A stretch of 64,000 nucleotides of DNA from a virus (taxonomy: Duplodnaviria; Heunggongvirae; Uroviricota; Caudoviricetes), in IMG/VR virus record IMGVR_UViG_3300043418_000226; one strand, written 5' to 3'. The position numbers and the translations under genes were made by a program. Shown here one piece after another: positions 2,201 to 59,260 of the stretch. Numbering within the stretch: the first letter of the stretch is position 1; every line of letters begins with the position of its first letter. The notes below the pieces were generated by a model, which saw only the letters and a list, made by a program, of their open reading frames with translations, ran no database searches and had not been told where the DNA came from.

Positions 2201-2759
2201 TCCATGGGTAATGTGGCCCGATAGTTTGGTTGAAAATTTCATACCTGACCCCGCTAATAAAATTTTAGATTACGACGGTAATTTTGATTTTAAGGTAACA
2301 TTTGAATTACCAAAATTAGTTAAACAAAAGTCAACATTGTTTTCTAAATTACCATCTTACTTTGGGGTCGACATTGAAGAGTACGGTTTAACACTTATAG
2401 TAACGGAAAACGATATACAATCAAAATATAGATTCGGGGAATATACGTGGAAAGTAGGTGAAATCTACGAGTTAACCATTCAAAAAAGAGACGGGACAAT
2501 ATTGTTATTAATTAATAATGTAACAATAATAAAACATTATATTGAAACAACGCTATGTTCGGACAGTGTCTCACATATAATCTTTGGGTCGGGTAATTTT
2601 CCTAAAAATAACTTCAACTTAAACTACATTGATGTAATTTTACACCAATTTGAAATAATAAAAGAAGGAACCGTAATGTCTTTACATAAATTTGAAACCT
2701 TTATCCATGGTAAAAGTTTTGATGAAACAGGTAATTGTAATTTCATTCATAAAATATAG
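2178..2759 (+). CDS. Hypothetical protein, possible LamG-like beta-sandwich
   Basis: Beta-rich ORF, translationally coupled within the operon. Confidence 0.5.
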   Translation: MLRITEGNPWVMWPDSLVENFIPDPANKILDYDGNFDFKVTFELPKLVKQKSTLFSKLPSYFGVDIEEYGLTLIVTENDIQSKYRFGEYTWKVGEIYELTIQKRDGTILLLINNVTIIKHYIETTLCSDSVSHIIFGSGNFPKNNFNLNYIDVILHQFEIIKEGTVMSLHKFETFIHGKSFDETGNCNFIHKI

Positions 2760-2813
2760 TGATTTTCTATGTTTAATAAGAATAAAAACGTATATTAAAA
2801 TAAATTAAAGACA

Positions 2814-4382: not shown

Positions 4383-5617
4383 TGTCACAAGAAAATATAA
4401 ATAAATTTCCTATTAACACAGATACTTCATGTCAATTCAAATGGACATGGAGTACTTTGTTTTTATCGGTAGGCACATCTTCGAGTTGTCATAGATGTAA
4501 AGGATGGGACGTGTCGGAATATATGCACGATTTTCACAATCACCCCGGTAAGATTAAAGACCGTGAGAAAATGTTAAATGGAGAGTGGCCAGGTAATGGG
4601 TGTGAATATTGTAAAAAGGTTGAAGATGTTGGTGGAGTAAGTGAACGACAATCATACGTTAACGAAAGTCTATTGTCACCAAAAGAACTATCAACAAACC
4701 CAACTCAAACAAATGTTACTCCAAGAATATTAGAGGTTTACTTCACAAACGTGTGTAACCAAAAGTGTGTATACTGTTCACCGTTTTTTAGTTCGTTACT
4801 ACAAAATGAGATTGATAAGTTTGGACCAATTGAAGTTGGTTACAGTTATGATGGGTTCAAACCAAGAGGAGATTACGAGAGAATAAAAAGTGAGTTTTGG
4901 GTTTGGATGGATAAAAATTCAACAGACCTATTTCAATTCCAAATTTTAGGTGGTGAACCAATGTATCAACCAGAGTTCGAAGAATGTTTAACTTTTTTTG
5001 AGGAACGAACACATCCGAACTTGAATTGGAAAATCTTTAGTAATCTCAAACACGACACCAATAAATTTAAAGAAAAAATTACTCGTATATCAAACTTAAT
5101 CGAATCGGGTAAATTAAAATCTTTTGAGATTGTGTGTAGTATGGATTGTTGGGGACCTGAAGCGGAATTTAGTAGGTATGGTATGTCTTTAGTGGAGTGG
5201 GAAAGAAATTTTAATGTCCTATTAAACTCGGAACAAGTAAACATTTCAGTTCACTCAACTATCACACCAATTACATTACCAACCATGTGGGAGTTCTATG
5301 GAAAAATAGTAGAATGGAACAAAATAAAGAGAGTTGATTTCGGTTGGAACACAGTTAAAGAACCAATATTCATGAATCCTGAAATTATCGGGTCACACGC
5401 AACTGAATACTTGGATAAATTACTAAACGTGGTTCCAAGTAGTGATAATAGAAAGGTTTACTTGGAAGGAATTAGAGAACAAATAATAAATCATGACGTG
5501 GATTACGTTAGACTTAAAAGATTGTGTGTGTACTTGGATAAAATCGACCAAAGAAGAGGTACCGATTGGAAACAACTATACCCATGGTTAAATAACATAC
5601 TTAAAAATGAAAATTAA
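4382..5617 (+). CDS. Radical SAM protein (twitch/SPASM-like N-terminus)
   Basis: CNQKCVYC, LGGEP; CQFKW..SCHRC..GCEYC. Confidence 0.9.
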   Translation: MSQENINKFPINTDTSCQFKWTWSTLFLSVGTSSSCHRCKGWDVSEYMHDFHNHPGKIKDREKMLNGEWPGNGCEYCKKVEDVGGVSERQSYVNESLLSPKELSTNPTQTNVTPRILEVYFTNVCNQKCVYCSPFFSSLLQNEIDKFGPIEVGYSYDGFKPRGDYERIKSEFWVWMDKNSTDLFQFQILGGEPMYQPEFEECLTFFEERTHPNLNWKIFSNLKHDTNKFKEKITRISNLIESGKLKSFEIVCSMDCWGPEAEFSRYGMSLVEWERNFNVLLNSEQVNISVHSTITPITLPTMWEFYGKIVEWNKIKRVDFGWNTVKEPIFMNPEIIGSHATEYLDKLLNVVPSSDNRKVYLEGIREQIINHDVDYVRLKRLCVYLDKIDQRRGTDWKQLYPWLNNILKNEN

Positions 5618-6950
5618 ACCATCTGAAGGTAATAAAACATTCTGTATGGCACCTTGGACACATACATATCTGTCACCACAAAGTGAAAGACGTATGTGTT
5701 GTGCCAGTAGAGAGAAAGCAACTTGGGCTACACAATATATTGATTCTGAAAGTGCTGACAAAGGTTCTAATTACAATCCCGCAACTTTAGAAGAACATTG
5801 GAATAGTCCGTACATGATGGACATTCGTAAACGATTAATGGCAGGAGAAGAAATCTCTCAATGTGATGTTTGTAACCAAAAATTACTGAATATTCACATC
5901 TATAGAGATTATTTCACTAAAACATTATTCCCACATAAGATTGATGAGGTTTTTGAAAAAACAAATGATGAGGGGTACACTGAAATGAAACCAATATCGT
6001 TTGACTATAGAATCTCGAACCTATGTAATTTCAAATGTAGAATGTGTGGTGACCAATTATCATCTAGTTGGGAAGCGGAGAGAAGAACAATGGGACATTA
6101 CGATGGTACCGGTGATTTTTGGGCACTTAAACAAAACAAATCAACCATTGAAAATTTCCAAAAAGAGGTTGCCGAAAAAGAATTATGGGAAGCGGTTTAT
6201 GACGGTAGAATTGAAGAGATTTATTGGGTCGGTGGTGAACCTCTAATGTGGGACATTCATTGGGATATTATGAAATACTTAGTTGATACTGGTAAATCTA
6301 AAAACGTTATTGTGAGGTATAATACCAACCTAAGTAGAGTTAGATACAAAAACCACTACTTATTTGATTATTTACCCCACTTTAAGAGTGTACAAATTTG
6401 TGCAAGTATCGATGGTGTTGGTGACATTGTTGAATACGTTAGACATGGTGTAAAATGGAACGATTGGTTACAAAACTTTAAAGAGGGTATATTCCTAAAC
6501 AAACAATATGGTGAATATGGAATAGCATTCGATTTAACTGTAACGTCACCTGGTCTTTTCTCGATGAAGGATATGATTGATATTACATTAGGGATGGATG
6601 TACACACATTAATTAAAACAACTTTCTCATTTGATAGTAGTATTGTTATGTCACCAATGATGATACCAAGACACATATTGAACCCAATACTTGATGATAT
6701 TATTGATTATGCCAAATCAAAAAACAATCGAAAGATTGATAATTACGTTACGTGTTTTGAGGATATAAAAAGTAAACAAACATTCCAAGAACAATATCCC
6801 GATTGGGAGAAAGGATTAATTGAAGGTAAGAAGAGATTAATGATGGTTGACCTTCACAGAAGTAATGTTGGTAAAATCGAAGAGATATTCTCAAGGAATT
6901 CCGAATTATTAGAATGGTGGAACGGTATTAAAGTAAATAATTTATTATGA
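5607..6950 (+). CDS. Radical SAM protein (twitch/SPASM-like N-terminus)
   Basis: CNFKCRMC, VGGEP; CMAPW..MCC..QCDVC. Confidence 0.9.
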   Translation: MKIKPSEGNKTFCMAPWTHTYLSPQSERRMCCASREKATWATQYIDSESADKGSNYNPATLEEHWNSPYMMDIRKRLMAGEEISQCDVCNQKLLNIHIYRDYFTKTLFPHKIDEVFEKTNDEGYTEMKPISFDYRISNLCNFKCRMCGDQLSSSWEAERRTMGHYDGTGDFWALKQNKSTIENFQKEVAEKELWEAVYDGRIEEIYWVGGEPLMWDIHWDIMKYLVDTGKSKNVIVRYNTNLSRVRYKNHYLFDYLPHFKSVQICASIDGVGDIVEYVRHGVKWNDWLQNFKEGIFLNKQYGEYGIAFDLTVTSPGLFSMKDMIDITLGMDVHTLIKTTFSFDSSIVMSPMMIPRHILNPILDDIIDYAKSKNNRKIDNYVTCFEDIKSKQTFQEQYPDWEKGLIEGKKRLMMVDLHRSNVGKIEEIFSRNSELLEWWNGIKVNNLL

Positions 6951-8158
6951 TAGAACAAGAATTTGATGATAAAGCATTTTGTATATTACCATTTATACAT
7001 CTTGCCACACACCCCATAGGAACAGTAACACCTTGTTGTGTAACCGATATGGAAAATGATATGAGTACATCAAAAAAGAATGGACTTAATATGTTCTTAA
7101 ATAAAGATTCATTATCAGATATTACTAATTCGGATGGTTTTAAAACTGTCAGAAAAAAAATGTTAAACGGAGAATTTCCATTAGAATGTAAAACTTGTTA
7201 TTTCTGTGAAAAGAATAACATATACAGTAAAAGAATGGAAAGTAATTTAAAGTTTAAACATTTGATTGATGGTGCAATTAAAAATACTAACAAAGATGGT
7301 GAACTTAAAAAATTAAATTACAAATATATTGAATTAAGGTTAGGTACCGTATGTAATTTGAAATGTATAACTTGTAATCCATTTAGTAGTAATAGGTGGA
7401 ATGAGGATGTTAGCGCATTTAAAGAAACTGAGTTCGAAAAAAGTTATTTTAAATGTGATATTAGGACTGAATGGTTTAGAGACATCAAATTTTACGACGA
7501 GTTATTGACTCAATGTGATGAATTGGAAGAAGTTTGGATTAACGGTGGTGAACCTACATTAATTAAAGAGCATGGGTACTTTTTAGAAAAACTAATTGAA
7601 AGTGGTAAATCCAAAGATATTAATCTACATTATAGTCTTAATATGACTGACGTTCCAGATAAATTTATTGAAATATGGAAGAAGTTTAAACACGTAAGAA
7701 TTCATTTATCTATCGATGATTTAAATGAAAGGAATGACTATATTCGGTACGGATCAAAGTGGAATAACATAATGGATAATTTTAATAAAATAATTGAATA
7801 TAAGGATGTCTTTAGAATCGAGGTTTGCCAAACGGTGAGTGCATATAATGTCTTCAATATTGACAACTTTAAAAAGATGTGTTTAGATTATGACGTAATT
7901 GTTGCACATAACTACGTTAACCACCCTGGATTCCAACACGTATCCGTTATACCTTCTGAAATGAAAAATGAGATATTGAATAACATAAAATATCTTAGAG
8001 ATGATGAGAAAAATCGACTTATAACAGAGTTAACGAAACAAAGTAATCCCGAAGATTTGGATAAATTTATAAAGTTTACCTATATATTAGATAATAAGAG
8101 AGGTGTAAAAATAACAGATATTTTACACGAATGGAAAAAATACATTAACTATGAGTAA
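6947..8158 (+). CDS. Radical SAM protein (twitch/SPASM-like N-terminus)
   Basis: CNLKCITC, NGGEP; CILPF..PCC..ECKTC. Confidence 0.9.
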   Translation: MIEQEFDDKAFCILPFIHLATHPIGTVTPCCVTDMENDMSTSKKNGLNMFLNKDSLSDITNSDGFKTVRKKMLNGEFPLECKTCYFCEKNNIYSKRMESNLKFKHLIDGAIKNTNKDGELKKLNYKYIELRLGTVCNLKCITCNPFSSNRWNEDVSAFKETEFEKSYFKCDIRTEWFRDIKFYDELLTQCDELEEVWINGGEPTLIKEHGYFLEKLIESGKSKDINLHYSLNMTDVPDKFIEIWKKFKHVRIHLSIDDLNERNDYIRYGSKWNNIMDNFNKIIEYKDVFRIEVCQTVSAYNVFNIDNFKKMCLDYDVIVAHNYVNHPGFQHVSVIPSEMKNEILNNIKYLRDDEKNRLITELTKQSNPEDLDKFIKFTYILDNKRGVKITDILHEWKKYINYE

Positions 8159-8921
8159 GTTATGGGTATTCGGTGATTCATGTTCATCGAGTTTAACGGA
8201 ATTAAGACATAATCATATGATTGAGGATTTTGTCCAAAAATTCAATGATGGGAAAGATTATGACATTTGGTACGAAATAGTTGGCAAAGAATTGGGAATA
8301 GATGTTGAGACATTTGGAAAATCTGGATCTTGTAACTATGCCATATTTGAAAGAATATGCCAAAATTTTGATATAATTAATGAGAATGATATCGTGATAA
8401 TCAATTGGACAGTTGTGGAAAGATTTAGAGTGGCTATGGGTAATAGAATTACCGATTATGTTACAATATTGGCAACATACATGACTGAAGAACACGGGAA
8501 GTGGATCTATGATTCAACAAAAAAAATGTTAGATAAGGCGGATGTTACAATAGAAAGTGCCATAGAAATAGGGTTCAATCGTTACAAATTTAACCCATTG
8601 TTCCAAAATGAAATTAACTCTTGGTCGTACTTAATTTATTCTTTTTTTAAAAGTAAAAATATAAAGGTTGTTTTTTGGGGGTTAACACTTACCCAACCAT
8701 ATTATTTTATGGAGGCTTATCAACCTATTATGGAAAAAAAAGGTCTTATTCATCATGAAACAAACGGTGAGATTAAAGATTGGCACTTCGGTGTTAGTGG
8801 GAATAAACTATTTGCGGATTATGTAATTGAGAAAATAAAATCTGAAAATTTTGATTTATTAAAAGACCATTTTTTTATTACATCACCACATCCACATCCA
8901 ATAAAAAAAAGAAATATATAA
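8151..8921 (+). CDS. SGNH/GDSL-like hydrolase or acyltransferase
   Basis: N-terminal WVFGDS, central GSCN, C-terminal DWH..GN. Confidence 0.6.
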   Translation: MSKLWVFGDSCSSSLTELRHNHMIEDFVQKFNDGKDYDIWYEIVGKELGIDVETFGKSGSCNYAIFERICQNFDIINENDIVIINWTVVERFRVAMGNRITDYVTILATYMTEEHGKWIYDSTKKMLDKADVTIESAIEIGFNRYKFNPLFQNEINSWSYLIYSFFKSKNIKVVFWGLTLTQPYYFMEAYQPIMEKKGLIHHETNGEIKDWHFGVSGNKLFADYVIEKIKSENFDLLKDHFFITSPHPHPIKKRNI

Positions 8922-8924
8922 TAA

Positions 8925-10079
8925 ATGAGTAAAATTTTTTGTTCTGCACCATTCGTACATCTCCATATAGATAAAAATGGGGATGTATTACCATGCTGTG
9001 GCGCTCAGGATAGAATTAATACATTGTTTGGAAATATTAATAATGAATCAATTGAAGAAATATATGATGGTGAGGTTATTAAAAAATTTAGAAGTAATTT
9101 ACTAAATGACATTCCGTCCTTGGCTTGTGAAGGTTGTTATCAAATAGAAAAAAATGGAGGAGAATCCTACCGTAAATGGTTTAACAAAACATATCCGGTT
9201 AATACTAACGAAATCAACATAAAGTATATTGATATTCGATTCTCTAATTTTTGTAACTTTAAATGTAGAATGTGTGATGGTGAATCGTCTAGTTCGTTAA
9301 AAAGTGAAGAAATAAAGTTAAATAACGTAACTTATACGAGTCCAATAATTGAAATCGATAAAAATAAAGTCTTTGATTTTTTCATAACTAACATGGATAA
9401 TGTTGATAAGATATATTTTGCCGGTGGAGAACCATTAATCATGGACGACCACTATAAATTATTGGAATTGTTAATTCAAAACGATAAAACAAACGTCACA
9501 CTTTCATATAACACAAATCTATCGACATTACAATACAAAGGTAAAGGTGTTGTAGATATGTGGAACAAATTTAAGAATGTGGAAATCTATGCAAGTTTAG
9601 ATGGAATACATGAAATTGGGGAATACATACGGGACGGATTAAATTACAAAAAATTTGAAAATAATTTCTTTATAATAAGAAATAATTGTCCCGATGTGAG
9701 AGTGAGTATTAACATCTGTGTTAACATATTTAACATATTCCATTTATTTAAAATGTTACCATATGTCTATGAACAAAAAATATTAGACCCGAATAATTTT
9801 ACAATTAACATACTAACAACACCATACTATCAGAACATTACTGTTTTACCAAATGACCTAAAAAATAAATGGGCCGATGAATTCAAACTATTTAAGGACA
9901 TTTATTTAAGTGCCGATTACCGTAACATTATTCACCAATTAGAGATAATTATGAACCATCTCCAATTGAAAGATGAGTCAGAACATCTCAATCAATTTTA
10001 TGATGAGGTAAAAAAATACGACATAATAAGGAATCGAGACTTTTTTAAGTTGTACGATAATCTAATCCCAATAAAATAA
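8925..10079 (+). CDS. Radical SAM protein (twitch/SPASM-like N-terminus)
   Basis: CNFKCRMC, AGGEP; CSAPF..PCC..ACEGC. Confidence 0.9.
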   Translation: MSKIFCSAPFVHLHIDKNGDVLPCCGAQDRINTLFGNINNESIEEIYDGEVIKKFRSNLLNDIPSLACEGCYQIEKNGGESYRKWFNKTYPVNTNEINIKYIDIRFSNFCNFKCRMCDGESSSSLKSEEIKLNNVTYTSPIIEIDKNKVFDFFITNMDNVDKIYFAGGEPLIMDDHYKLLELLIQNDKTNVTLSYNTNLSTLQYKGKGVVDMWNKFKNVEIYASLDGIHEIGEYIRDGLNYKKFENNFFIIRNNCPDVRVSINICVNIFNIFHLFKMLPYVYEQKILDPNNFTINILTTPYYQNITVLPNDLKNKWADEFKLFKDIYLSADYRNIIHQLEIIMNHLQLKDESEHLNQFYDEVKKYDIIRNRDFFKLYDNLIPIK

Positions 10080-11056
10080 TGGATTTTATACAAACATATT
10101 ACCCATATGAAATCATTACGGATACTAAGGAGAAATTGAAAACCGTATTAAAGTTTTCCCTACTATCTTCCTATTTAGGTAAAGAACATTACCCAAAAAC
10201 AATATTATATACCAATAGTGGTATGGTTAATATCTTTAAAAAGTATATTCCATTTTATGACATTATTAACACTGAAGTTTTAGATAATAATCAACACAAT
10301 TTTAAACAAAATCCCGAATACTATGCAATACCGAAACTATACACTTACAGTAATAGTAACTTACCATTTATTCATGTGGATTTAGACACGTTTATTTTTG
10401 ATAAACCAAATAAAATACAAGATGAAAGTGACGATGCTCACAATGGTGTATTTGTTGGTCATTTTGATTTTTATTTCAGTAAGGAATTGCATTTAAATGA
10501 GTTGAAGGGGTATGAGGAATATTACAAACCCATTTTAGACAATGTTAAATCAAATAACATTTGGACATCTGACATATTAAATGAGATATCACTTAATAGA
10601 ACAATAAATGCAAATATTTTCGGTGGATATAATCATCAATTAATTTTACATACATATAAAAAAATTGTAAATAATTTTGAGGAAAATCAAGACTTCTATA
10701 AAACACAAAAATACGTAAGTTTATTTTTGGAGCAAATGATGTTTTATCCGGTATCTAAAATTATTAATAGTTGCAATGTTATTAACCAACTTTCACAGGA
10801 AGGAATTTACTTTAATCATAAAATTGAATCTGAAACAATCATATTACATAACCATAATAGAAAAATTGATAACGTTATTTTTAAAAGAAATGATAATGAA
10901 GGAATTAAAAATTATTTAATTAAAAATGAATTCGGAGGAGTTTTCCACTATGGAAATTATAAAGACACTGAACTTTATAAAGATGCAATTTTTGAATACA
11001 TTGAAAGACATGAAATATTAGGACAGTTATATAAAAAAATAGAAAATGAACTCTAA
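10079..11056 (+). CDS. Putative GT-A fold glycosyltransferase-like protein (DUF6734-like)
   Basis: YAIPKLY..PFIHVDLD (DxD motif). Confidence 0.5.
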   Translation: MDFIQTYYPYEIITDTKEKLKTVLKFSLLSSYLGKEHYPKTILYTNSGMVNIFKKYIPFYDIINTEVLDNNQHNFKQNPEYYAIPKLYTYSNSNLPFIHVDLDTFIFDKPNKIQDESDDAHNGVFVGHFDFYFSKELHLNELKGYEEYYKPILDNVKSNNIWTSDILNEISLNRTINANIFGGYNHQLILHTYKKIVNNFEENQDFYKTQKYVSLFLEQMMFYPVSKIINSCNVINQLSQEGIYFNHKIESETIILHNHNRKIDNVIFKRNDNEGIKNYLIKNEFGGVFHYGNYKDTELYKDAIFEYIERHEILGQLYKKIENEL

Positions 11057-12245
11057 CATTAATAAAGACACATTTTGCGTATTGGCACATAGAGGTTTAC
11101 ACATAGATAATAAGATGAATGTAAAACCATGTTGTGTTTTTACTAATTTTGATGAACCGGTTATATATGGTCAAGACAAAACCATATTGGAATCCATTAA
11201 CACAAATCAATTTAAAGATTTAAGGGATAAATTAAATAAAGGAGAATACCATAAAGGATGTTCAAATTGTTTTAATGGTAGAACAAACTACAGGACCGAC
11301 ATTAACCAATTATTTGAAACTCAAAGTGATATATTGGATGAATACACTAAATTTTTAAACTTGGAAACTAGTGAGGTTAATTATATTGATATGAGAATTT
11401 CAAATAAATGTAATTTTAAGTGTATTATGTGTTGTGATATGTATTCTTCGGCATGGGAGGTTGACCTTAAGAAAATTTATTCGGGATATTCATCAGTAAG
11501 TAACGTCGAATTAAGTAAAAATTGGCAAAATCATTTTAAAGAAATTACAAAAAAAATAAAATTTATTTATTTTTCAGGTGGAGAACCATTTATTATGGAT
11601 GAAACGTTTGAATTAATAGATTTACTCGGTGAGGATTCAAAAGAAACGTCAATTTTTGTTAATACGAATTTATCAACATTAACATATAAAGATAGATTTG
11701 TATTAGATTATTTTAAGAACTTTAAAAGAGTGATTTTTCACATATCATGTGATGGATTTGGAGATATCGGGGAATATATTCGTTTTGGATTTAAAACCGA
11801 TAAAATTAAGAACAATATTACTAAATTGATAAAATTTATAGGTGAACATAAACATATTGATTATGATATTACTTATTCAATTTCGATTATAAACGTGGAT
11901 AATTTATTTGAATTTTTGGATACATTAAAAACTGAATTAAAAATAGACGATTCAAAAGTTAATTTTCAAATGGTGGGGTCACCGTATAATTTAAGTGTGG
12001 CATCTCTAAATTTGACAGAAAAAAATCGAATAACTGAGGAAATATCAAATAAGATGTTAAATTATAGTAATGAAACCATCGGTAGACTAAAAAGATTTCT
12101 CCAAACGGTCAATACCACAACGAGTGTCGATTTTTTCGATGATAACTTGGACCCACATCTCATTAAGAAGGTAGATAACCTAAGAGGTAACGACATTGGT
12201 AAGTTTGTATCAATTGACAATTTAAAACATTTAAGGATAAATTAA
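11046..12245 (+). CDS. Radical SAM protein (twitch/SPASM-like N-terminus)
   Basis: CNFKCIMC, SGGEP; CVLA..PCC..GCSNC. Confidence 0.9.
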   Translation: MNSNINKDTFCVLAHRGLHIDNKMNVKPCCVFTNFDEPVIYGQDKTILESINTNQFKDLRDKLNKGEYHKGCSNCFNGRTNYRTDINQLFETQSDILDEYTKFLNLETSEVNYIDMRISNKCNFKCIMCCDMYSSAWEVDLKKIYSGYSSVSNVELSKNWQNHFKEITKKIKFIYFSGGEPFIMDETFELIDLLGEDSKETSIFVNTNLSTLTYKDRFVLDYFKNFKRVIFHISCDGFGDIGEYIRFGFKTDKIKNNITKLIKFIGEHKHIDYDITYSISIINVDNLFEFLDTLKTELKIDDSKVNFQMVGSPYNLSVASLNLTEKNRITEEISNKMLNYSNETIGRLKRFLQTVNTTTSVDFFDDNLDPHLIKKVDNLRGNDIGKFVSIDNLKHLRIN

Positions 12246-15194: not shown

Positions 15195-15418
15195 TGATGG
15201 TACAAAAAAAACGACACATTGCTAAAACAATTTCATATCGAATAGTTAGTACTATGATTGGATTTTTATTAATGTGGTGGATAAGTGGTTCAGTAAAAGT
15301 CGGTACCGCGTTCGGTGTTGCTGAGTTAGTTTACAAACCAATACAGTATTACATACATGAAAGAATTTGGTATAAGTGGATTAAGTTTGGATTAAATAAA
15401 AATGATAAAGGTAACTAA
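15194..15418 (+). CDS. DUF2061-like small membrane protein
   Basis: AKTISYR..YYIHERIW. Confidence 0.7.
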   Translation: MMVQKKRHIAKTISYRIVSTMIGFLLMWWISGSVKVGTAFGVAELVYKPIQYYIHERIWYKWIKFGLNKNDKGN

Positions 15419-15863
15419 CAAATTTTTAACGGATAATCAAACACAAAGTCTCATATCATTGTGGGATAATAATTTATGTTTCGAAGTTAAGGATGAAATA
15501 TATAGATTTAAAGGTATCGATTTATTACCCATATTACATCAGTTAGATTTACCAAATTTTTTAAAAATGAGGCAAATTTATAATGCATTTAGATTACAAT
15601 TAGTTGACGAAACTATAGAACAGGTTGATTATTTTCACTCACATACTGACCCATATTCTTTTGTTATATTTTTAAATCATAATTTTACTGGTGGAGAATT
15701 AACATTCGATAACGGGACGAAAATACAACCAACCGCCGGTAATATGATATATTTTAGCGGAAATGAAAAACATCGTGTAGAAAAAACAAAGGGTAAAAGA
15801 TTCACATTAATCTCATTTCTTAATCAGGATTTATACTCTGAAGTTAAAAAAACAATAATATGA
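15402..15863 (+). CDS. 2OG-Fe(II) oxygenase (prolyl-hydroxylase-like)
   Basis: HSH, FLNHNFTGGEL, HRV..GKRFTL. Confidence 0.8.
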   Translation: MIKVTNKFLTDNQTQSLISLWDNNLCFEVKDEIYRFKGIDLLPILHQLDLPNFLKMRQIYNAFRLQLVDETIEQVDYFHSHTDPYSFVIFLNHNFTGGELTFDNGTKIQPTAGNMIYFSGNEKHRVEKTKGKRFTLISFLNQDLYSEVKKTII

Positions 15864-16336
15864 TTGTAATATTTGAAAACTTTTTAAAAGATGGTGAAAC
15901 TAATCAACTTGTTTCATTATGGAATGAAACTGAAAGAAACTATTCAAATGTAGGTGCACATTTTTATTTTAATAACCTTATTCCAATAAAAGATAATATT
16001 GAAATAAAAGATTATTTTTTTAAAGACCACATTTTTGAAGCGTTAAGATTACAAAAATATGACGATACAATAATTCAAAATATTAGTTACCACCGCCACT
16101 ATAATCCATATAATTTAGTAATTTATTTGAATGACAATTTTCATGGGGGAACTTTGGAATTCACAAATGGAGTAACCGTAACACCAAAAAAGGGAATGTT
16201 AGTTTACTTTAATGAAAATGAAATGCATAGAGTTAACGACCACCAAGGAGTTAGATGGTCGTTAGTTGCATCATCTAAAAAAGATTTTCTAAATAAAATA
16301 ATCTCATCTCAACCATCTGTATATAAATATATATGA
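15860..16336 (+). CDS. 2OG-Fe(II) oxygenase
   Basis: HRH, YLNDNFHGGTL, HRV..GVRWSL. Confidence 0.8.
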   Translation: MIVIFENFLKDGETNQLVSLWNETERNYSNVGAHFYFNNLIPIKDNIEIKDYFFKDHIFEALRLQKYDDTIIQNISYHRHYNPYNLVIYLNDNFHGGTLEFTNGVTVTPKKGMLVYFNENEMHRVNDHQGVRWSLVASSKKDFLNKIISSQPSVYKYI

Positions 16337-17064
16337 AATTAATATGGACGTTAAATTTTAATATCGAATCTAACGATGTTATTAGGGAAAATCGAAAAAT
16401 ATTGATTAATTTTTATGTTAAATCTATAACAACTGCCAAACAATTGGGGTACGTTACAATAATATACACAAACGAATCAAATAGACATGTATTCGATTCT
16501 TTAGTCGATGAATTTATACCGTTGGAATCTTATTGTGACTCAATACTATTTGATAGTTTTAAAATAAAGGTATTGGAAGAGAGAACTGATGATTTTTACC
16601 TAATTGATGGTGATTTAATTTTAAATTCTGTCTTACCTGTATTTGACGTGGACGTTACTTTTGATTCATATGAAATTAGTCATTGGAAAATGGCATATGG
16701 GGATTCAATTAATGAATTAATGGGGTTAGGTATAAATGAAATTTTTCCCGATTTCAGTTCAAAAACAATTAAAATACTTGGTTGCGGATTATTACGCATA
16801 CCTAACCTAAAAAATAGGTTAGATTATGTTGATAATTGGAAAAAATTCAGTATCTTTATTAATAACAATATTACACAAATAAAAAACAATCCGACCGCAG
16901 TTGGTGCTCAATATTTATTAACGATGTTAATTAAGAATAACGGGTTAAGTGTTAAACCATTATCTGAGGTTTTAGGTCAACAAAACGAGTTTTATAAACA
17001 TTATATTGGACAATCTAAATATAACATCAACGACTCGAACGGTCACTCTAAAAAATTATTTTGA
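16333..17064 (+). CDS. Putative GT-A fold protein (DUF6734-like)
   Basis: FKIKVL..FYLIDGDL; resembles 10079..11056. Confidence 0.45.
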   Translation: MKLIWTLNFNIESNDVIRENRKILINFYVKSITTAKQLGYVTIIYTNESNRHVFDSLVDEFIPLESYCDSILFDSFKIKVLEERTDDFYLIDGDLILNSVLPVFDVDVTFDSYEISHWKMAYGDSINELMGLGINEIFPDFSSKTIKILGCGLLRIPNLKNRLDYVDNWKKFSIFINNNITQIKNNPTAVGAQYLLTMLIKNNGLSVKPLSEVLGQQNEFYKHYIGQSKYNINDSNGHSKKLF

Positions 17065-17107
17065 TATTTATCATAAGACATTAAAAGACAACAATTAAAA
17101 AAAACAT

Positions 17108-18973
17108 ATGAAAGGTACATTTTTTTCTTCCGATTTTATCAGGGATTCCAATGGAGAATTAAGATTATTGGAAATAAACACAGACACAACCACCGGGTAT
17201 AATTCAACATTAGCATACTTTGATTATAGTAATTTTATTAACATTTTAAGTGAGAATAACATTACTGATGTTTGTATCATATATAAAATGGCATTACAAG
17301 GTAAGGTTGTTGATCATTTATGTGGTGTTCTTGAAACATCAGCACCCTTTATTACCAATATTGAAAAAATTGTTGTTCCGGCGGATTCTATTTTCCCATC
17401 AAATCCTGAAGATTCGGACACCAAATTTATTTTAAGATTTGCATACGATGAAACCGCAATCTTGGACTCGGAATATGCTAAAGGAACTTTAAATTTATTA
17501 AAGTTATTTTCAGATAATAATGACAATGAATCTATTATAAATTATTATCATTCGTCCCCTATTAATGGTACGTATAATACATTATTGAATGATAATTTAA
17601 CAAATCCTAACAATATACCGGATGTGATTGTTAAACCCGTAGTAGTTGACCATAAGGCGTTCCCATTATATAAAATAGGTAAATCTAATCTAACACCAAC
17701 TGAAAGGTACGGTGAATTTATTTCGGACGTTGCAACAACAAATAACATAATACAACAATATCACATTTCCCAATCACAAATTGAACAGAACATTGTTACC
17801 TCAGTTAGAGTTTTTAAAATTGTTTACGGTCCTTACTTAGAATTGTGTGATGTAGCGGAATACGAGGCCGAGGCGGTGTTCAATCTACCAACGTCAATCG
17901 AGGTCGACGACACCAAAATTAGTAACCAACTTAGTTTAAAACATTACTATGAGTTTGCGACTAACTTTATTAAAAATGAAAAACACGGATTATTAGGTGA
18001 AGAAATGGTTGTTAGTTTAAGTGGAGATGAAATACCAATCTCAACAATGGTTGAGGGAGATTCATACCCATCTTACTTTGTTGAAGGTTCACCGAACACC
18101 GATGACGACGACATATTAAACCAATGGAGTTTTTCTGGCAGTGAGTTACCAAGCGGGTCATATCAAACAACGTCAGTTTTAATTCATTTATATGAGTGGC
18201 AACCATTTGCCAATGAAATCACTAAAATTTCATTCCCAAATGACGAATACATTAGAATTGGTGGAGCAAACAGATTATTGGCTTACGATTCAATAACGAA
18301 CTCAATTAAATACATACCATGTAATTTCTTGACAACAAATCATTCTATATTCGACTCAACTGGTAATTTAGTACCAATTGTTAACGTTGAATATGAAATT
18401 TTAGAAACAACTGAAACTTTCTATTCTCCGAATATGGAGGATGTCGATACATTCTTAATCGGTGGATCTAAAATCATTAGATTGGTTTCCCATAACCCAA
18501 TTAGGGGTGTATCATGTTTCATTGCAGGTACTACCGTAACGATGGGGGACGAGTCAATAAAAAATATTGAAGATGTTATTATTGGAGATGAGGTTATGTC
18601 ATTTAATGAGATAACTAAAGAAGTTGAAGTTAAAAAAGTGACAAATGTTAAAACACCACTACATAATGATTTGGTAACGTACACTTTAAGTGACGGAAGA
18701 ACAATCACAAGTACATTTGACCACCCATACTATGTAAACTCGACAGAATTGGCGTCATTCGACCCTAAATTAACAATTGAAAGATATGATTTGGGAAGAG
18801 AAATCCATGAGATTAAAATTGGAGATACAATTCAAAATTTAACCGATTTGACTTTAACAACTATAGTTGATATTAAGGGAAAAATCACAAATGAGACTCA
18901 AACATATATCATAACGGTTGAGGATAACCATAATTTCTATGCAAATGGAATCTTAGTTCATAATAAAGTATAA
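17108..18973 (+). CDS. Circularly permuted ATP-grasp-like domain fused to two tandem Hint (intein-like) domains
   Basis: SDFIRD..LLEINTD, VIVKP and IIQQY in the N-terminal half; Hint1 G294..SHN463; linker PIRGVS; Hint2 CFIAGT..TFDHP..HNFYANGILVHN619, then KV-stop. Confidence 0.8.
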   Translation: MKGTFFSSDFIRDSNGELRLLEINTDTTTGYNSTLAYFDYSNFINILSENNITDVCIIYKMALQGKVVDHLCGVLETSAPFITNIEKIVVPADSIFPSNPEDSDTKFILRFAYDETAILDSEYAKGTLNLLKLFSDNNDNESIINYYHSSPINGTYNTLLNDNLTNPNNIPDVIVKPVVVDHKAFPLYKIGKSNLTPTERYGEFISDVATTNNIIQQYHISQSQIEQNIVTSVRVFKIVYGPYLELCDVAEYEAEAVFNLPTSIEVDDTKISNQLSLKHYYEFATNFIKNEKHGLLGEEMVVSLSGDEIPISTMVEGDSYPSYFVEGSPNTDDDDILNQWSFSGSELPSGSYQTTSVLIHLYEWQPFANEITKISFPNDEYIRIGGANRLLAYDSITNSIKYIPCNFLTTNHSIFDSTGNLVPIVNVEYEILETTETFYSPNMEDVDTFLIGGSKIIRLVSHNPIRGVSCFIAGTTVTMGDESIKNIEDVIIGDEVMSFNEITKEVEVKKVTNVKTPLHNDLVTYTLSDGRTITSTFDHPYYVNSTELASFDPKLTIERYDLGREIHEIKIGDTIQNLTDLTLTTIVDIKGKITNETQTYIITVEDNHNFYANGILVHNKV

Positions 18974-18976
18974 AAG

Positions 18977-19117
18977 ATGTCAGTAACAGTATATAAGTCG
19001 ATTAAAATCGAAGACGCTAAATTAAAAACAGTAACCCCCATAAATTCTACCGATAAGGCTAAAGTTAATTTAGTCGTTGGTAAGTTTATCCAATATCTAA
19101 AGGCCGCACATTCATAA
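18977..19117 (+). CDS. Small hypothetical protein (46 aa); not in ORF track
   Basis: MSVTVYKSIKIEDAKLKTVTPINSTDKAKVNLVVGKFIQYLKAAHS; fills the gap between the Hint gene and the oxygenase with 3-4 nt spacers. Confidence 0.65.
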   Translation: MSVTVYKSIKIEDAKLKTVTPINSTDKAKVNLVVGKFIQYLKAAHS

Positions 19118-19121
19118 TTGT

Positions 19122-19679
19122 ATGGTTTTATTTGAGAAAGTAATATTAACTGAGGATGATTGCGCAAATATTGTTAAATCCATCCATGAGTGGACCACTG
19201 CCGGTTTATACTCTCAAAAAGGAGATAGTTACGTTACTGTGGTTAATTCACATAAACGAAACACATTGGCTTCGTTTATTTCTCTCAAAAATCAAAGTAT
19301 TTTACATTCCAAAATTAACGGGGCACTTAATGAAATTGGGTATAAATTTATTACCGATAATATCGATGGTAATATATTAAAATACGAAAAAGATTGTTTT
19401 ATTTATAAACATCACGACTTACCAATTGAAGGAGTTAAACGAATTTTTTGTGTTATCGTCCAATTAAACGATTCCACAAAATACATCGGTGGAGATTTCA
19501 AATATTACCCCAACAACAATGAATTCAAGATGGGTAGAACTATTGGAAATTGTTTAATCTTTAAACCGGAGTTATTACACGAAGTCACATTAGTCGAACA
19601 AGGTGAAAGATATTCATTAGTTGTATGGGTTAACTACGAAGACATCGAAAAATTATCAACAAAACGAAGTTTAATATAA
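19122..19679 (+). CDS. 2OG-Fe(II) oxygenase
   Basis: KHHD, VQLND..YIGGDF, LHEV..GERYSLVVW. Confidence 0.85.
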   Translation: MVLFEKVILTEDDCANIVKSIHEWTTAGLYSQKGDSYVTVVNSHKRNTLASFISLKNQSILHSKINGALNEIGYKFITDNIDGNILKYEKDCFIYKHHDLPIEGVKRIFCVIVQLNDSTKYIGGDFKYYPNNNEFKMGRTIGNCLIFKPELLHEVTLVEQGERYSLVVWVNYEDIEKLSTKRSLI

Positions 19680-20270
19680 ATGAAAACCATTTTAATTGCC
19701 AATCCAAGAACTGGGTCAACATCAATTTCATTTTATGTTCAAGAATTAAAAGGAAATCGACAAGTTTTCATTGAACCATTTTACGAACATAGAGACATAT
19801 CATATAAAGAAGTTTTATCATACGATAATAGTTTCACTAAACAAATCTATAACCAATTACCAAAGGAGTATAACAATATGAAACGTGAAGACTTCTATGA
19901 AATGGTGTTTAAGGATTTTGATAAGGTCGTTTTTTTAGATAGAAGAAACATTACCAAACAATCCGAGAGTTATTCTTCAGCATTGGTTAGGGATGAGTGG
20001 TACGGTAAATACATGTACGACCCAAGTACGGCAAGTAAACATTTAGAGATAACACAAAGAATTTTATCCGAAATTAAACATGAAATGCAAATTCTGTCTA
20101 ACATTAAAAATATGACAATTCATTACTATGAAGACATATACTTTAATGAAGAATATATGGTTAATTTCTTAAAAGAAATCAATTGTGAATTTAATGAACC
20201 CCTATATAAAAAATACTTGGATAGGTCGAACACATATAGAAGTGGTAAAATAGATAAAACAATAATTTAA
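19680..20270 (+). CDS. Sulfotransferase-like protein
   Basis: PAPS-binding-like ANPRTGST, EPF, LDRRN..QSES, YYEDI. Confidence 0.7.
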   Translation: MKTILIANPRTGSTSISFYVQELKGNRQVFIEPFYEHRDISYKEVLSYDNSFTKQIYNQLPKEYNNMKREDFYEMVFKDFDKVVFLDRRNITKQSESYSSALVRDEWYGKYMYDPSTASKHLEITQRILSEIKHEMQILSNIKNMTIHYYEDIYFNEEYMVNFLKEINCEFNEPLYKKYLDRSNTYRSGKIDKTII

Positions 20271-24443: not shown

Positions 24444-25426
24444 AAATTATAGTCTTGTTTTAACGTATTTTCTATAATGTATATTCCCTGTATTTTACCA
24501 GTGAAACAATTTATCACATTACCACTCTTTGTGATTACCGGATATCTCTCATCTGACTTACTCACTATTTTAGATTTAGTGGATAAAAAATATGAATCAT
24601 ATTTAAAGAATGTCAAGAATTCAGGAAAATAATGTTTTACTTTTTTCTCAATTAACTTAATTTTTTTATCGATTAGTTCCTGAGTAATGGTGCCCCTGTA
24701 TTCATTTAACTTATTAATTGTTTTGAATTTTCTCAACGGAGTATGTTCAACATCGGTTAACGTAAATTTACCTTTTTGATATGGATATATTGAAAAGAAT
24801 TCACCGTCAACCATTGTTAGTGCGTCAAATTCAGTTTCTTTTATTTTTTCATAAATTAACGATATTGTCAATTCAAAGAAACTATTTTGATTGTGTAAAT
24901 CTTTAATGTGATTATTGGTTGCATTTATAACCAAATCGTATTCTTTTGAAATCTTTTTAAGTTTATGAGGTGTAATTGTTTCATTCACCACGAGATTCTT
25001 TAATTCTTTATTAAAAAATTCATGTGCTAATTTAAAATTAATGTACCTCTCGTCAGTATTAAGACACCCCTCAACATCCACGAATGAAACGTCACTGTGT
25101 TCTTTATTATAATCCCTAAAAATTTCCACGTAAGTTCCAAAATCAATAATGGATTTAGAATATGGGACACAATAAAGATTATTTTTCACCTCTTCGGTCA
25201 TGAATCCGTAATCGTCCATAAATTGAGTAAACGTATTTTTACTCATTAGTCTTGTCTTATAATTTCGAGCGTAATGAAAACCACTATGTAATCTGTTTTG
25301 ATTATTAAATGATGTTTCTTTAAATAATTCGGTGTTTTTCTCGTAAATGACAACTTCGTGATTACCTTTTAACTTATTAGCCAAATGGCAACCTACCCAT
25401 CCCCCACCGATAATGGCAATTTTCAT
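24440..25426 (-). CDS. FAD-dependent oxidoreductase
   Basis: MKIAIIGGGWVG, NQNRLHSGFHY, TGKI; start moved to the coupled ATG at 25426. Confidence 0.8.
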   Translation of the reverse strand: MKIAIIGGGWVGCHLANKLKGNHEVVIYEKNTELFKETSFNNQNRLHSGFHYARNYKTRLMSKNTFTQFMDDYGFMTEEVKNNLYCVPYSKSIIDFGTYVEIFRDYNKEHSDVSFVDVEGCLNTDERYINFKLAHEFFNKELKNLVVNETITPHKLKKISKEYDLVINATNNHIKDLHNQNSFFELTISLIYEKIKETEFDALTMVDGEFFSIYPYQKGKFTLTDVEHTPLRKFKTINKLNEYRGTITQELIDKKIKLIEKKVKHYFPEFLTFFKYDSYFLSTKSKIVSKSDERYPVITKSGNVINCFTGKIQGIYIIENTLKQDYNL

Positions 25427-26088
25427 TAAATTGTTCTTTTTAAAATTTGGCTTTGACCCCAATTTGATTTATTTTTATATAGGTCCAATGATGGGTAATA
25501 TTCGGTTCTTCTTTGTGTGTCGGTATTAAACCAATTATCGTTATCCACTACTCTCCAATCATCATTATTATTATAAATAACGGGCATAGGATTTGTCATC
25601 CACATAATATAATCTTCATTTGGTACTCCCCAATTTTTCCAATAGGTCATTGACTCCTCAGAATAATCGGTGTTCTTAATTGAAACGATTTTATCTTTAA
25701 CACTCATTAAATAACTATATTTATATGTTCCCATCGTCATTGCCGGTTTAGACTTTAATGCCAATTTAACTGGTCTATCTTGTGGAATATTATAAAGTAA
25801 TTCTTTAAATTTAGGACCTAATTTACATGTGTCATGAATTAGAAACCAATATTCTGATGATAACTGTTTCTCTACAATTTCAATCAATGGACTATATTCA
25901 TATGAGTTATGGTCCAAGTAATGAAAGTGAATACCATCTTCTGTTTTTTCATAACGATATTGTTTAAATCCCGCATTGAAAACGTGTATATCGTTAGGGT
26001 CAATTCCTCTTTCTATTAATGAAGGAATCACAATCGGTAACGTCGATTTATAAAAATTTATATTTGTTGCAATTGCTATTTTTATCAT
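25426..26088 (-). CDS. Hypothetical, glycosyltransferase-like
   Basis: HNSYEY, WFLIHDT; lies in the GT operon. Confidence 0.5.
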   Translation of the reverse strand: MIKIAIATNINFYKSTLPIVIPSLIERGIDPNDIHVFNAGFKQYRYEKTEDGIHFHYLDHNSYEYSPLIEIVEKQLSSEYWFLIHDTCKLGPKFKELLYNIPQDRPVKLALKSKPAMTMGTYKYSYLMSVKDKIVSIKNTDYSEESMTYWKNWGVPNEDYIMWMTNPMPVIYNNNDDWRVVDNDNWFNTDTQRRTEYYPSLDLYKNKSNWGQSQILKRTI

Positions 26089-29637: not shown

Positions 29638-31002
29638 TTAAATTATTTTATATAAATCGAATTTTTTTCTTGGTGAAAAGTTTTCAAAAGCGGTGTCAAT
29701 ACCCTCAATCATTTTCTCACACATTATTTTATTTGATAGGTTTTTAATCATAAACTCCCTACCTTTTTTACCGTTCTCTTTTCTTTTTTTCTTAGGTAAT
29801 TTATACATTGACATAATAGCTTTGGCAACATCATCGTTGTTAACTCTATCATCAAAAATATACGGTGTTGGTACCGAACCGTTAAGATTAATTGCAGATG
29901 ACCAAACAGGAATTACCCAATCCCCTTCTTTTACCAAGTGCATTGATTTTTCTTTATGATGTAAAGAACCGATAGAAATGTAATCATCTTCAGTGAAATT
30001 AAAACCACATTGGTCCTGTAGACCACCGGTTACGTTTACAATGATTGGAGTACCTGACATTAAACTTTCTGCGGTCGTTAGACCAAACCCCTCGTTGTTT
30101 GCAATGTTAATTGCACAATCAACCATATTGTACAATTCGTTTAACATATTCTGTTCTAATTTTATGTTGGTAAATTTAACATCATAATCAGGACATAGGT
30201 CATTTTTAACGGCAATTAAATCCGTACCATTCTCATCAATTGGGGTTGTGTGCATTAACAAAAGACATTTTTTCGATTTTTCTTTTGGTAATTGGTCACA
30301 GAATAATTTAAACGAATAAATTACATCACTTGGTTGTTTCCTTCTTATGTTTCTATTATTATAGAACATAATAAAGTCATATTTTTTATCACCAATAATC
30401 GATTTAACCACATCTGAATTTACTGAGTCTAAAGGTTTAAAAACTTCAGGATTAATCCCATGAGGTACATAACTAATTTGCCAATCCTCTAAAGGTTTAA
30501 AAGTTGGTTTATCCGTTCTTTTACCTACACGATGTACAATTCCGTATGTTTGTTTTGAGATACAACCCAACCAATCACAACTTTCATAGTAATTTCTATT
30601 ATATTGTGGATCGGGTAAATCATCCCATATGTGGTAAAATAACAAAGGAACTTGTTGTCTAATTTCATGCTCATTGTCATATAACCATTGCCAATAATGT
30701 GGGTCGGTAAAATGAAGAATTGCATCTGGTTTCTCTTCTTTAATTAATTTTCTAAGAATTGTCATGTCACCATAACCATTATAAGGAATAATTTTTAAAT
30801 TGGCATCTTTCACACCGGTTCTTTCCCTAACGTCCTCGTTAACGTCAACTATACTACCCAATTCAGGATGGTTTAGAGATGCTCCCAATTGTACCCAATC
30901 ATATTTATGTATCGTTCCTAATACAAATTCTCTGGACATTGTTGCAATTCCCGATGTCATTCTTAAATCGTCGGATAAAAGTAATATTTTCTTTTTACTC
31001 AT
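29638..31002 (-). CDS. Glycosyltransferase family 4 (GT-B)
   Basis: VPHGI, NRNIRRK, NEGFGLTTAES..GTP. Confidence 0.85.
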   Translation of the reverse strand: MSKKKILLLSDDLRMTSGIATMSREFVLGTIHKYDWVQLGASLNHPELGSIVDVNEDVRERTGVKDANLKIIPYNGYGDMTILRKLIKEEKPDAILHFTDPHYWQWLYDNEHEIRQQVPLLFYHIWDDLPDPQYNRNYYESCDWLGCISKQTYGIVHRVGKRTDKPTFKPLEDWQISYVPHGINPEVFKPLDSVNSDVVKSIIGDKKYDFIMFYNNRNIRRKQPSDVIYSFKLFCDQLPKEKSKKCLLLMHTTPIDENGTDLIAVKNDLCPDYDVKFTNIKLEQNMLNELYNMVDCAINIANNEGFGLTTAESLMSGTPIIVNVTGGLQDQCGFNFTEDDYISIGSLHHKEKSMHLVKEGDWVIPVWSSAINLNGSVPTPYIFDDRVNNDDVAKAIMSMYKLPKKKRKENGKKGREFMIKNLSNKIMCEKMIEGIDTAFENFSPRKKFDLYKII

Positions 31003-59065: not shown

Positions 59066-59259
59066 TGACACAGGACCAATTCAATAGAGCGGAACAAATC
59101 TTAGAACAAATATCTAAGTTGAAAAGATTAAGAGGACGAATACTCAACACACACAAAAAACATAAGAACGATGTGGAGATGATGGAAGTGATGAACGATT
59201 GTTTAAGTGCTGTAGATGTATTAATTGAAATTGACGAAAAAAAATTTAAAGATTTATAA
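59065..59259 (+). CDS. Hypothetical protein
   Basis: Coupled ORF. Confidence 0.5.
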   Translation: MTQDQFNRAEQILEQISKLKRLRGRILNTHKKHKNDVEMMEVMNDCLSAVDVLIEIDEKKFKDL

Positions 59260-59260
59260 C

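Follow-up and report, generated by a model that had tools for sequence, protein, structure and literature searches.

An ATP-grasp-like viral protein with a degenerate Hint domain, optional BIL-type Hint cassettes and a predicted 46-residue subunit

The gene at positions 17,108–18,973 of a 64,000-nucleotide stretch from IMG/VR virus record IMGVR_UViG_3300043418_000226 (Caudoviricetes), hereafter called the window in its full length, encodes a 621-residue protein in which a putative circularly permuted ATP-grasp-like domain precedes two Hint domains (Hint1 and Hint2), separated by the hexapeptide PIRGVS. Our best explanation, to which we give about an even chance, is a two-subunit, self-processing amide ligase of the ATP-grasp type, with this gene specifying the large subunit; the ligase would form the core of a tailoring module restricted to viruses. 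The mature enzyme would comprise residues 1–463, with Hint1 as a permanent part, together with a 46-residue subunit encoded immediately downstream, and cyclisation of Asn463 would cut off whatever follows Hint1. The segment 3' of Hint1 would be a short, variable, lysine-containing tail, here PIRGVS...KV, into which Hint2 may have been inserted just before the tail lysine as an optional cassette resembling the A-type bacterial intein-like (BIL) domains. Hint2 would remove itself through thioester formation at Cys470 and cyclisation of Asn619, and its flanks might or might not be rejoined, as documented for A-type BILs; its removal would leave a product equal to that of relatives devoid of such cassettes. 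The mature ligase would act, on a peptide or protein substrate, with neighbouring 2-oxoglutarate (2OG)-Fe(II) oxygenases and with other enzymes that share a C-terminal tail of the form K-x-[ST]-[IL]-[IL]. PIRGVS would accordingly be a linker and not a product.

Gene organisation and source

The open reading frame (ORF) of the large gene, its parts and the adjacent small gene are arranged as follows.

17108..18973, plus strand: large gene ORF, 621 residues, three-part protein.
17108..17986, plus strand: N-terminal domain (N-domain), residues 1–293, putatively circularly permuted ATP-grasp-like, the first strand carrying D9...E22-x-N24.
17987..18496, plus strand: Hint1, residues 294–463, a degenerate Hint according to profile search, AlphaFold2 (AF2) model and Foldseek.
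18497..18514, plus strand: spacer PIRGVS, residues 464–469, the opening part of the short variable tail.
18515..18964, plus strand: Hint2, residues 470–619, an intact A-type BIL-like mini-Hint without an endonuclease domain.
18965..18973, plus strand: Lys620-Val621 and the stop codon, directly 3' of Hint2.
18977..19117, plus strand: 46-residue partner protein P0270, starting 3 nt after the stop of the large gene and characterised through its homologs and a complex prediction.

The limits of the ORF and of Hint1, PIRGVS and Hint2 were all given exactly in an earlier note on this DNA. The late-type promoter that the same note had placed at 17065 was not recovered, as TATAAATA is absent there and promoter-like sites are no commoner than in shuffled sequences. 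A protein identical to the 621-residue product was found on a 318,764-bp metagenome contig of the Joint Genome Institute and on one Logan contig, and the gene belongs to an uncultured phage of ~319 kb. The G+C content of the window is ~30%. Megablast and tblastn searches of the gene against 50,697 cultured-phage records returned no homolog of the N-domain or Hint1, and the sole matches of Hint2 were helicase inteins of Vibrio phages at 24–30% identity. Within the window, no further copy of any of the three domains was found.

The N-terminal domain resembles permuted ATP-grasp ligases

The AF2 model of residues 1–293 had a predicted local distance difference test (pLDDT) score of 84 and a predicted template-modelling score of 0.81. 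The assignment of this domain was based on two agreeing structure-comparison methods applied to the predicted model and on a short sequence motif. All listed Foldseek matches with E up to 0.016 (ranks 1–49) belonged to the permuted ATP-grasp clade, with an E of 9e-7 for glutathione synthetase 3kaj. The same clade provided the top 11 matches in VIA-align, with Z of 8.7–6.8 over 199–225 residues, the uppermost value lying near the VIA-align background for hard models. The members matched by either program were eukaryote-type glutathione synthetases, YgiC/YjfC, GspS, trypanothione synthetase, two related putative synthetases and the E-64 ligase Cp1B. In the structural alignments, which were colinear, the first residue of the model was paired with residue 146 of 5oeu and with residue 311 of 2io7.

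The motif FSSDFIRDSNGELRLLEINTDT of the N-domain pairs with residues 316–335 of Escherichia coli GspS, GRMDFCMDERGLKVYEYNADS, and D-F, D, G, K/R and E-x-N-x-D are all in register over residues 6–27. By this motif, D9, E22 and N24 correspond to D318, E330 and N332 of GspS, and the lysine of the VKP element (K176) pairs with that of the GspS VKP (K533). Residues D9, E22, N24, K176 and K189 are invariant in 48–55 relatives. By analogy with GspS and Ddl, we take the D...E-x-N residues to bind Mg and the lysines to bind ATP. Permuted ATP-grasp ligases such as glutathione synthetase, GspS and YgiC/YjfC couple peptides, through their C-terminal carboxylate, to an amine.

Residues 1–293 matched no family in Pfam, PHROGs, NCBIfam or PADLOC, and a feature search of the ESM Atlas with the N-domain gave no usable match. 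A structure search of the same resource returned viral clusters of the ligase family and one GSP_synth cluster at a TM of 0.43. The relatives all begin at MKGTFF. The permuted ATP-grasp-like domain postulated in the earlier note is thus backed by the AF2 fold, the Foldseek and VIA-align matches and the GspS motif, without support at the level of profiles. We grade the placement of the modelled domain in the circularly permuted branch as good but not conclusive, because no profile links it to ATP-grasp families and the best structural Z is close to background.

Hint1 is degenerate and would cleave only at its C-terminus

A profile of Hint1 built from 55 homologs matched Protein Data Bank (PDB) entry 6y75 at 2.5e-7 and was aligned by hhalign with the Hint2 profile at a probability of 91.7%. 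The AF2 model of the domain had a pLDDT of 90, and its best Foldseek matches were BIL2 of BUBL (6y75; E 1e-8, TM 0.70/0.80), the C. thermocellum BIL (2lwy), inteins and Hedgehog (1at0); Hint1 had no Pfam match. The domain starts with an invariant Gly294 in place of Cys1, and the TxxH of block B is missing, this region being a gap in the alignment of the Hint1 and Hint2 profiles. Hint1 retains the acidic block-F residue, E444, and carries a conserved insert, LPxGSYxTSS. At its end, N463 is invariant and H462 nearly so among 55 relatives, and His-Asn is also kept in distant and Hint-free forms, the latter being those that have no canonical Hint after Hint1. On its profile and modelled fold, Hint1 is a genuine but degenerate Hint.

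Under established intein chemistry, a Hint with a terminal His-Asn but without an N-terminal nucleophile is limited to Asn cyclisation, i.e. to C-terminal cleavage. The proposal of the earlier note that Hint1 can cleave only at its C-terminus is consistent with Gly294, the missing TxxH and the kept H462-N463, and would follow from this chemistry.

Hint2 is an A-type BIL-like Hint

Hint2 scored above the cutoffs of three families, namely Pfam Intein_splicing (37.5 bits; cutoff 35.8), Pfam PT-HINT (34.7 bits; cutoff 27.7) and TIGR01443 intein_Cterm (29.7 bits; cutoff 15.6), and its best sequence matches in the PDB were the BIL structures 2lwy (4e-7) and 6tmm/6y75 (6e-6). Its 150 residues include Cys1 (C470), TFDH (T536-x-x-H539) and VHN (V-H618-N619). 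The +1 residue is Lys620 and not Cys, Ser or Thr, and it is followed only by Val621 and the stop codon. Across 48 diverse relatives, C470, T536, H539, H618, N619 and K620 are invariant. The domain therefore has the sequence hallmarks of an A-type BIL, namely Cys1, TxxH and terminal His-Asn with neither a +1 nucleophile nor an endonuclease, and by sequence it is an intact A-type BIL Hint. Profiles, structures and conservation bear out two genuine Hint domains with exactly the catalytic residues listed in the earlier note. A-type BILs cut at both ends; that they can act without a +1 nucleophile is attributed in PMC7765530 to Dassa 2004.

Canonical Hints are labile additions to a variable tail

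A word-indexed search retrieved 1128 proteins. When the N-domain was searched exhaustively, its relatives fell into 236 clusters at 50% identity, and the domain started at residue 1 in those of full length. A scan of IMG/VR found 105 viral loci that encode a relative, and the ESM Atlas clusters of the ligase family are 100% viral. The family is large and seems confined to big uncultured aquatic phages. Its size classes of ~460–490, 600–650, 730–790 and 900–930 residues correspond to zero, one, two and three canonical Hints after Hint1.

Over ~290 relatives, the spacer between Hint1 and Hint2 measures 0–14 residues and has no fixed sequence, as exemplified by none, AP, PL, LGS, ALS, LIGGS, LGISGG, PIRGVS and KIYSGGS. 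It is absent in whole clades, where HN is directly followed by C, and is LGS or AP in the commonest clades; both length and sequence already differ in relatives at 61–66% identity. The earlier note had anticipated a hypervariable inter-Hint peptide between fixed G1/HN and C1/HN positions, and both were seen, except that the length also varies. Of the conserved twin-Hint arrangement that it expected, Hint1 is kept and the canonical Hints range from none to three. Its central claim, that the system exists to excise PIRGVS, is not supported by these observations. Since the product can have zero length, its excision is not the conserved function, and Hint2 is itself optional.

The residue directly after the His-Asn of the last Hint (K620) is an invariant Lys in the aligned Hint-bearing forms. 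When the canonical Hints were removed in silico, the tails PIRGVS/KV, LGS/K, /K and AP/RY/KGGGF/K were left, with a slash at each site of removal. Hint-free relatives terminate in HN-ILAGKV, HN-K, HN-AKSY or HN-PAPPPKL, and the two sets line up, ILAGKV with PIRGVS/KV and HNK with the form in which a Hint separates HN from K. The Hint-free relatives retain the ATP-grasp domain, Hint1, a short Lys-containing tail and the small partner gene.

On a FastTree tree of 139 N-domains, the presence of a canonical Hint changed at least 16 times, by gain or loss, compared with a mean of 31 under shuffled labels, and Hint copy number changed 38 times (64 when shuffled). The terminal Hint is 55–61% identical to Hint2 whether the N-domain and Hint1 of its host are 63% and 74% or 43% and 31% identical to those studied here. 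From the closest to the distant members, the identity of Hint1 drops from 74% to ~30% and that of the terminal Hint stays flat, which argues that the terminal Hint is decoupled from its host. Spacer variability, the Hint-free tails, the gains and losses on the tree and the flat Hint identity together lead us to regard the canonical Hints as labile add-ons inserted into a short Lys-containing tail, of which PIRGVS is a part.

Two groups of proteins depart from this layout. Distant relatives (P0233–P0269; 490–680 residues) consist of ATP-grasp, Hint1 and, right after His-Asn, a Cys-rich peptide of 25–80 residues with a Lys among the last three residues in nearly all of them (e.g. ...CPGGPRGFK). 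In P0132, P0136, P0145, P0164, P0170 and P0180, and in loci L041, L047, L051, L058 and L080, the last canonical Hint is replaced by another Hint-like domain without a terminal His-Asn. These replacement domains end in ...SGLGDN...RQxxxLxKHL or ...RQAVFQ, and the ...KHL end resembles the ...FKAKHL of the partner protein.

A 46-residue partner is predicted to join the N-domain and Hint1

A homolog of the partner protein (43–53 residues) lies 3' of the large gene in 84 of 84 loci, at offsets of −1 to +99 nt, and Hint-free forms of the large gene have the ORF after them as well. The earlier note makes no mention of this ORF. Among the partner homologs, Tyr6 is invariant and Lys7 and His45 are nearly so, and the C-terminus corresponds to an amphipathic helix. 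Searches of Pfam, PHROGs, NCBIfam and PADLOC with the partner returned nothing.

The complex of the large protein and the partner, as predicted with ESMFold2, had an ipSAE interface score of 0.86 (runs of 0.87, 0.84 and 0.86), compared with 0.02 for the best of three controls. In the calibration of this tool, the ipSAE mark was reached by 58 of 80 solved complexes and by 2 of 110 mismatched pairs. The partner was modelled with a pLDDT of at least 87, and at least 93% of the contacts were common to the runs. Its C-terminal helix rests on residues 8–37, 118–142 and 233–258 of the N-domain, a site that includes the most conserved segment of this domain, for which the monomer model shows disorder. 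A pairing of the Tyr-Lys strand of the partner with the Hint1 strand 426–436 is also modelled, and the partner is placed on the face of the sheet opposite the side chains of D9, E22 and N24. The prediction supports a partner that binds the large protein and clamps the ATP-grasp domain and Hint1. Because the modelled contacts span the N-domain and Hint1, the partner has the appearance of a small subunit holding the ligase domain and Hint1 together. As a separate possibility, a graspetide-type precursor was considered for the partner and rejected, given that it has few acidic residues, that the ligase is not of the RimK/microviridin type and that the partner is modelled as a subunit.

Points that weigh against the proposed function

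The proposal of a self-processing, two-subunit ligase has to be set against several observations. Cleavage, ATP use and ligase activity of the protein are putative, as deduced from sequence and models, and the complex is a prediction computed from our own alignments. A search of PDB sequences with the N-domain profile found nothing, and hhalign of the N-domain against E. coli GspS returned a probability of 0.2%, i.e. no signal. The structural Z of 8.7 is, as stated above, near the background of the method, and the domain is devoid of the N-terminal 140–310 residues of its structural relatives, which form their substrate-binding or pre-ATP-grasp region. With regard to the tail, an invariant Asn463 is hard to account for where the tail is a single Lys.

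Three further points concern Hint2. The flat identity of 55–61% among terminal Hints could equally mean constraint instead of mobility. At least one canonical Hint is near-universal in the marine 618-residue clade, which is unexplained if Hint2 is a mere passenger, and the strict K/R after every His-Asn would likewise need another explanation.

Alternative explanations

A possible but unlikely alternative is that the enzyme carries its own scaffold. The ligase would modify its Lys-ending tail in cis, at the C-terminal carboxylate or the Lys side chain, tagged enzymes would tailor it, and Asn cyclisation by the Hint would release the fragment. In a more specific version, which we hold to be similarly doubtful, the ATP-grasp domain completed by the 46-residue subunit would acylate or extend the tail, and a Lys-derived peptide or small molecule would be freed without a protease. 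The decorating enzymes would be those that share the K-x-[ST]-[IL]-[IL] tail, here as a docking element; among them are the 2OG oxygenases, and other loci add carbamoyl-, methyl- and glycosyltransferases as well as radical S-adenosylmethionine (SAM) enzymes. Such a pathway would resemble biosynthesis on scaffold peptides or carrier proteins, with the Hint as a built-in release step. In its favour, a Lys is found at or a few residues from the C-terminus, after His-Asn, in nearly every form; the Cys-rich peptides of 25–80 residues that follow the Hint1 His-Asn in distant relatives have a near-terminal Lys; Asn463 is invariant; the structural relatives act on C-terminal carboxylates of peptides; and tailoring enzymes are conserved as neighbours. 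This explanation accounts best for the invariance of Asn463, the near-universal Lys and the Cys-rich tails of distant relatives. However, the tail shrinks to LGS/K or a lone K in the largest clades, its last residues vary (K, KV, KL, KQ, KF), nothing places it in the active site and the conserved Cys1 of the canonical Hints is left unexplained. The broader idea behind the earlier note, a Hint-released peptide tail carried by its own enzyme, survives in this minority form; PIRGVS as the product does not.

Conjugation of the kind attributed to BUBL is improbable. Here, the Cys470 thioester would be resolved by an amine instead of water. The amine could be provided, for instance, by a lysine in some host or virion protein or by partner residue Lys7, and the ATP-grasp–Hint1 portion would become covalently linked to a target. 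The nearest solved relatives of both Hints are indeed BIL2 of the Tetrahymena BUBL1 locus and the C. thermocellum BIL, a Hint at the C-terminal end of its cargo is the arrangement of Hedgehog, and Lys7 of the partner is nearly invariant. Nevertheless, Hint-free relatives keep all the other parts, which argues against thioester chemistry as the core function. Lys7 is modelled at the Hint1 strand 426–436, away from residues 469/470, and a BUBL-type unit needs a folded ubiquitin-like cargo between BILs, compared with only six residues between the Hints here.

We consider very improbable the model of the earlier note, in which C-terminal cleavage by Hint1 and thioester formation by Hint2 would free PIRGVS as an activated or cyclised hexapeptide product, in the manner of two-intein (TWIN) or split-intein circular ligation of peptides and proteins (SICLOPPS) schemes. 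The required catalytic residues are present and invariant and a hypervariable spacer lies between fixed junctions; the two-residue X-Pro spacers of other clades could conceivably give diketopiperazines. Against this, the spacer spans 0–14 residues and vanishes in whole clades, so that no core peptide is common to all members. The closest relatives, at 61–66% identity, differ in its length and sequence, it contains nothing like a recognition or core motif, and Hint2 is evolutionarily dispensable.

Finally, an ordinary intein or a precursor of the polymorphic-toxin type (pretoxin-HINT, PT-HINT) is scarcely credible, even with both Pfam Intein_splicing and PT-HINT matching Hint2, given a Lys620 at +1, insertion in a variable tail 0–14 residues after Hint1 and not in a conserved active site, the absence of an endonuclease domain and, in place of a downstream toxin domain, only Lys-Val. 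Splicing of Hint1 like a class 2 intein, with Cys470 as its +1 residue, was rejected separately; it would be possible only in the clades with HN followed directly by C, and six residues intervene here.

Comparison with known systems and implications

A-type BILs (2lwy; 6y75, 6tmm) share with the present Hints a mini-Hint of ~150 residues with Cys1, TxxH and His-Asn and without a +1 nucleophile or endonuclease, location in variable regions and tandem copies, and they are the best sequence and fold matches for both domains. The features seen here agree with those described in the review PMC7765530. In contrast to known A-type BILs, the Hints of this protein lie at the very C-terminal end of a viral enzyme, followed by no more than Lys(-Val), and 0–14 residues separate them instead of a ubiquitin-like domain. 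The first, which has lost Cys1 and block B, seems to be built into the enzyme as a fixed structural element.

Permuted ATP-grasp ligases (eukaryotic glutathione synthetase, 3kaj, 5oeu and 2hgs; the synthetase domain of E. coli GspS, 2io7; YgiC/YjfC, 7uka and 7uk6; Cp1B, 9cjn) share the fold and the order of elements, with the D...ExN strand first and the VKP lysine later. They differ in that profile similarity is absent and in the N-terminal 140–310 residues, which are missing here; in the predicted complex, the 46-residue subunit and a Hint pack on the domain instead. According to PMC12568646, the fungal E-64 pathway (ligase Cp1B, 9cjn) likewise pairs such a ligase with an Fe/2OG oxygenase.

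In pretoxin-HINT modules and the C-terminal domain of Hedgehog (HhC), a Hint also cuts a precursor at a defined point, and the distant relatives resemble these in having a Cys-rich peptide after His-Asn. Unlike them, the present protein has no toxin domain or sterol-recognition region, and only eight non-Hint residues follow Hint1 in this gene. In engineered two-intein cyclisation (TWIN, SICLOPPS), a short peptide is flanked by a C-cleaving Hint on its N-terminal side and by a thioester-forming Hint on its C-terminal side, an order of domains also seen here. However, the natural spacer is unconserved and sometimes absent, which makes selection for peptide production unlikely.

ATP-grasp ligases and Hint/BIL domains were each known separately. 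In the literature and family libraries searched, we found no description of an ATP-grasp domain fused to a Hint or intein-like domain, of one paired with an obligate mini-subunit or of one surrounded by enzymes with a common C-terminal tag. What is new is how the parts are combined: a putative ligase bears a one-sided Hint and a Lys tail, in some members with BIL inserts, and is accompanied by an obligate mini-subunit and by tailoring enzymes that carry the tag. An active ligase would represent an unexplored viral pathway, either post-translational or for small molecules. It would also be a natural example of one-sided Hint chemistry, limited to Asn cyclisation and retained across hundreds of lineages. 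Such a Hint could give protein engineers a module for traceless C-terminal release, and the natural series of Hint-free, one-, two- and three-Hint alleles is suited to studying how BIL cassettes spread. Should the tail instead prove to be a scaffold, it would be a case of virus-encoded scaffold biosynthesis with a protease-free release step built in.

Gene neighbourhood and shared C-terminal tails

The following genes flank the large gene and its partner.

15402..15863, plus strand: 2OG-Fe(II) oxygenase ending in VKKTII, of the same cluster as the one at 19122.
15860..16336, plus strand: 2OG-Fe(II) oxygenase ending in VYKYI, of the same cluster as the one at 19122.
16333..17064, plus strand: protein of 243 residues without a known family; its end is SKKLF, and 18 of 59 loci have it as upstream neighbour.
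19122..19679, plus strand: 2OG-Fe(II) oxygenase of 185 residues ending in TKRSLI (Pfam 2OG-FeII_Oxy_3, 5.5e-10).
19680..20270, plus strand: 196-residue protein of no known family, ending in IDKTII, a neighbour in 19 of 59 loci.

The 2OG-Fe(II) oxygenase family (Pfam 2OG-FeII_Oxy_3) occurs within 6 kb of the ligase gene in 55 of 59 non-redundant loci, and the association with flanking oxygenases pointed out in the earlier note is thus conserved. In 38 of the 59 loci, an oxygenase is the next gene after the partner ORF, which makes it the most frequent follower, and the only three copies of the family in the window all flank the ligase gene. The label of sulfotransferase that 19680–20270 had received was not confirmed, as the product has no family match.

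Several unrelated families of neighbours terminate in K-x-[ST/K]-[IL]-[IL]. Scored with a loose regular expression of our own, this tail is present on 26% of the same-strand ORFs of at least 100 residues in the loci, versus 1.8% of spurious opposite-strand ORFs. Within the window, the pattern matches exactly four ORFs, namely the large genes that flank the ligase and start at 15402, 16333, 19122 and 19680; the ORFs listed from 31 to 64 kb all lack it. As a tag, the shared tail may serve in docking, targeting or degradation, and its form is similar to that of a class-I PDZ-type C-terminal ligand. Weaker versions were seen at 8151–8921, 15860–16336, 25426–26088 and 29638–31002.

Directly upstream of the oxygenases, the segment 12540–15194 encodes a carbamoyltransferase (Pfam, 6e-63), an adenosine 5'-phosphosulfate kinase-like P-loop protein (8e-20) and a weak cytidylyltransferase-like ORF; in 19 of 59 loci, the neighbours of the ligase include a carbamoyltransferase. 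Radical-SAM-like genes form a run at 815–12245, upstream of the island, with PHROG radical SAM matches at 815–2200 and 2814–4382. The helicase encoded at 59225–61171 of the window has at most 40% identity to that of any cultured phage, the nearest being Bacteroides phages DAC16-23 (40%) and also a Chryseobacterium phage; by sequence, these relatives are a weak hint at a Bacteroidota host. In two of the relatives' loci (L003 and L005), genes for Kyano_Gp96, HSP20, peptide deformylase and UvdE and faint SET-domain genes lie near the module, as is typical of large marine T4-like phages.

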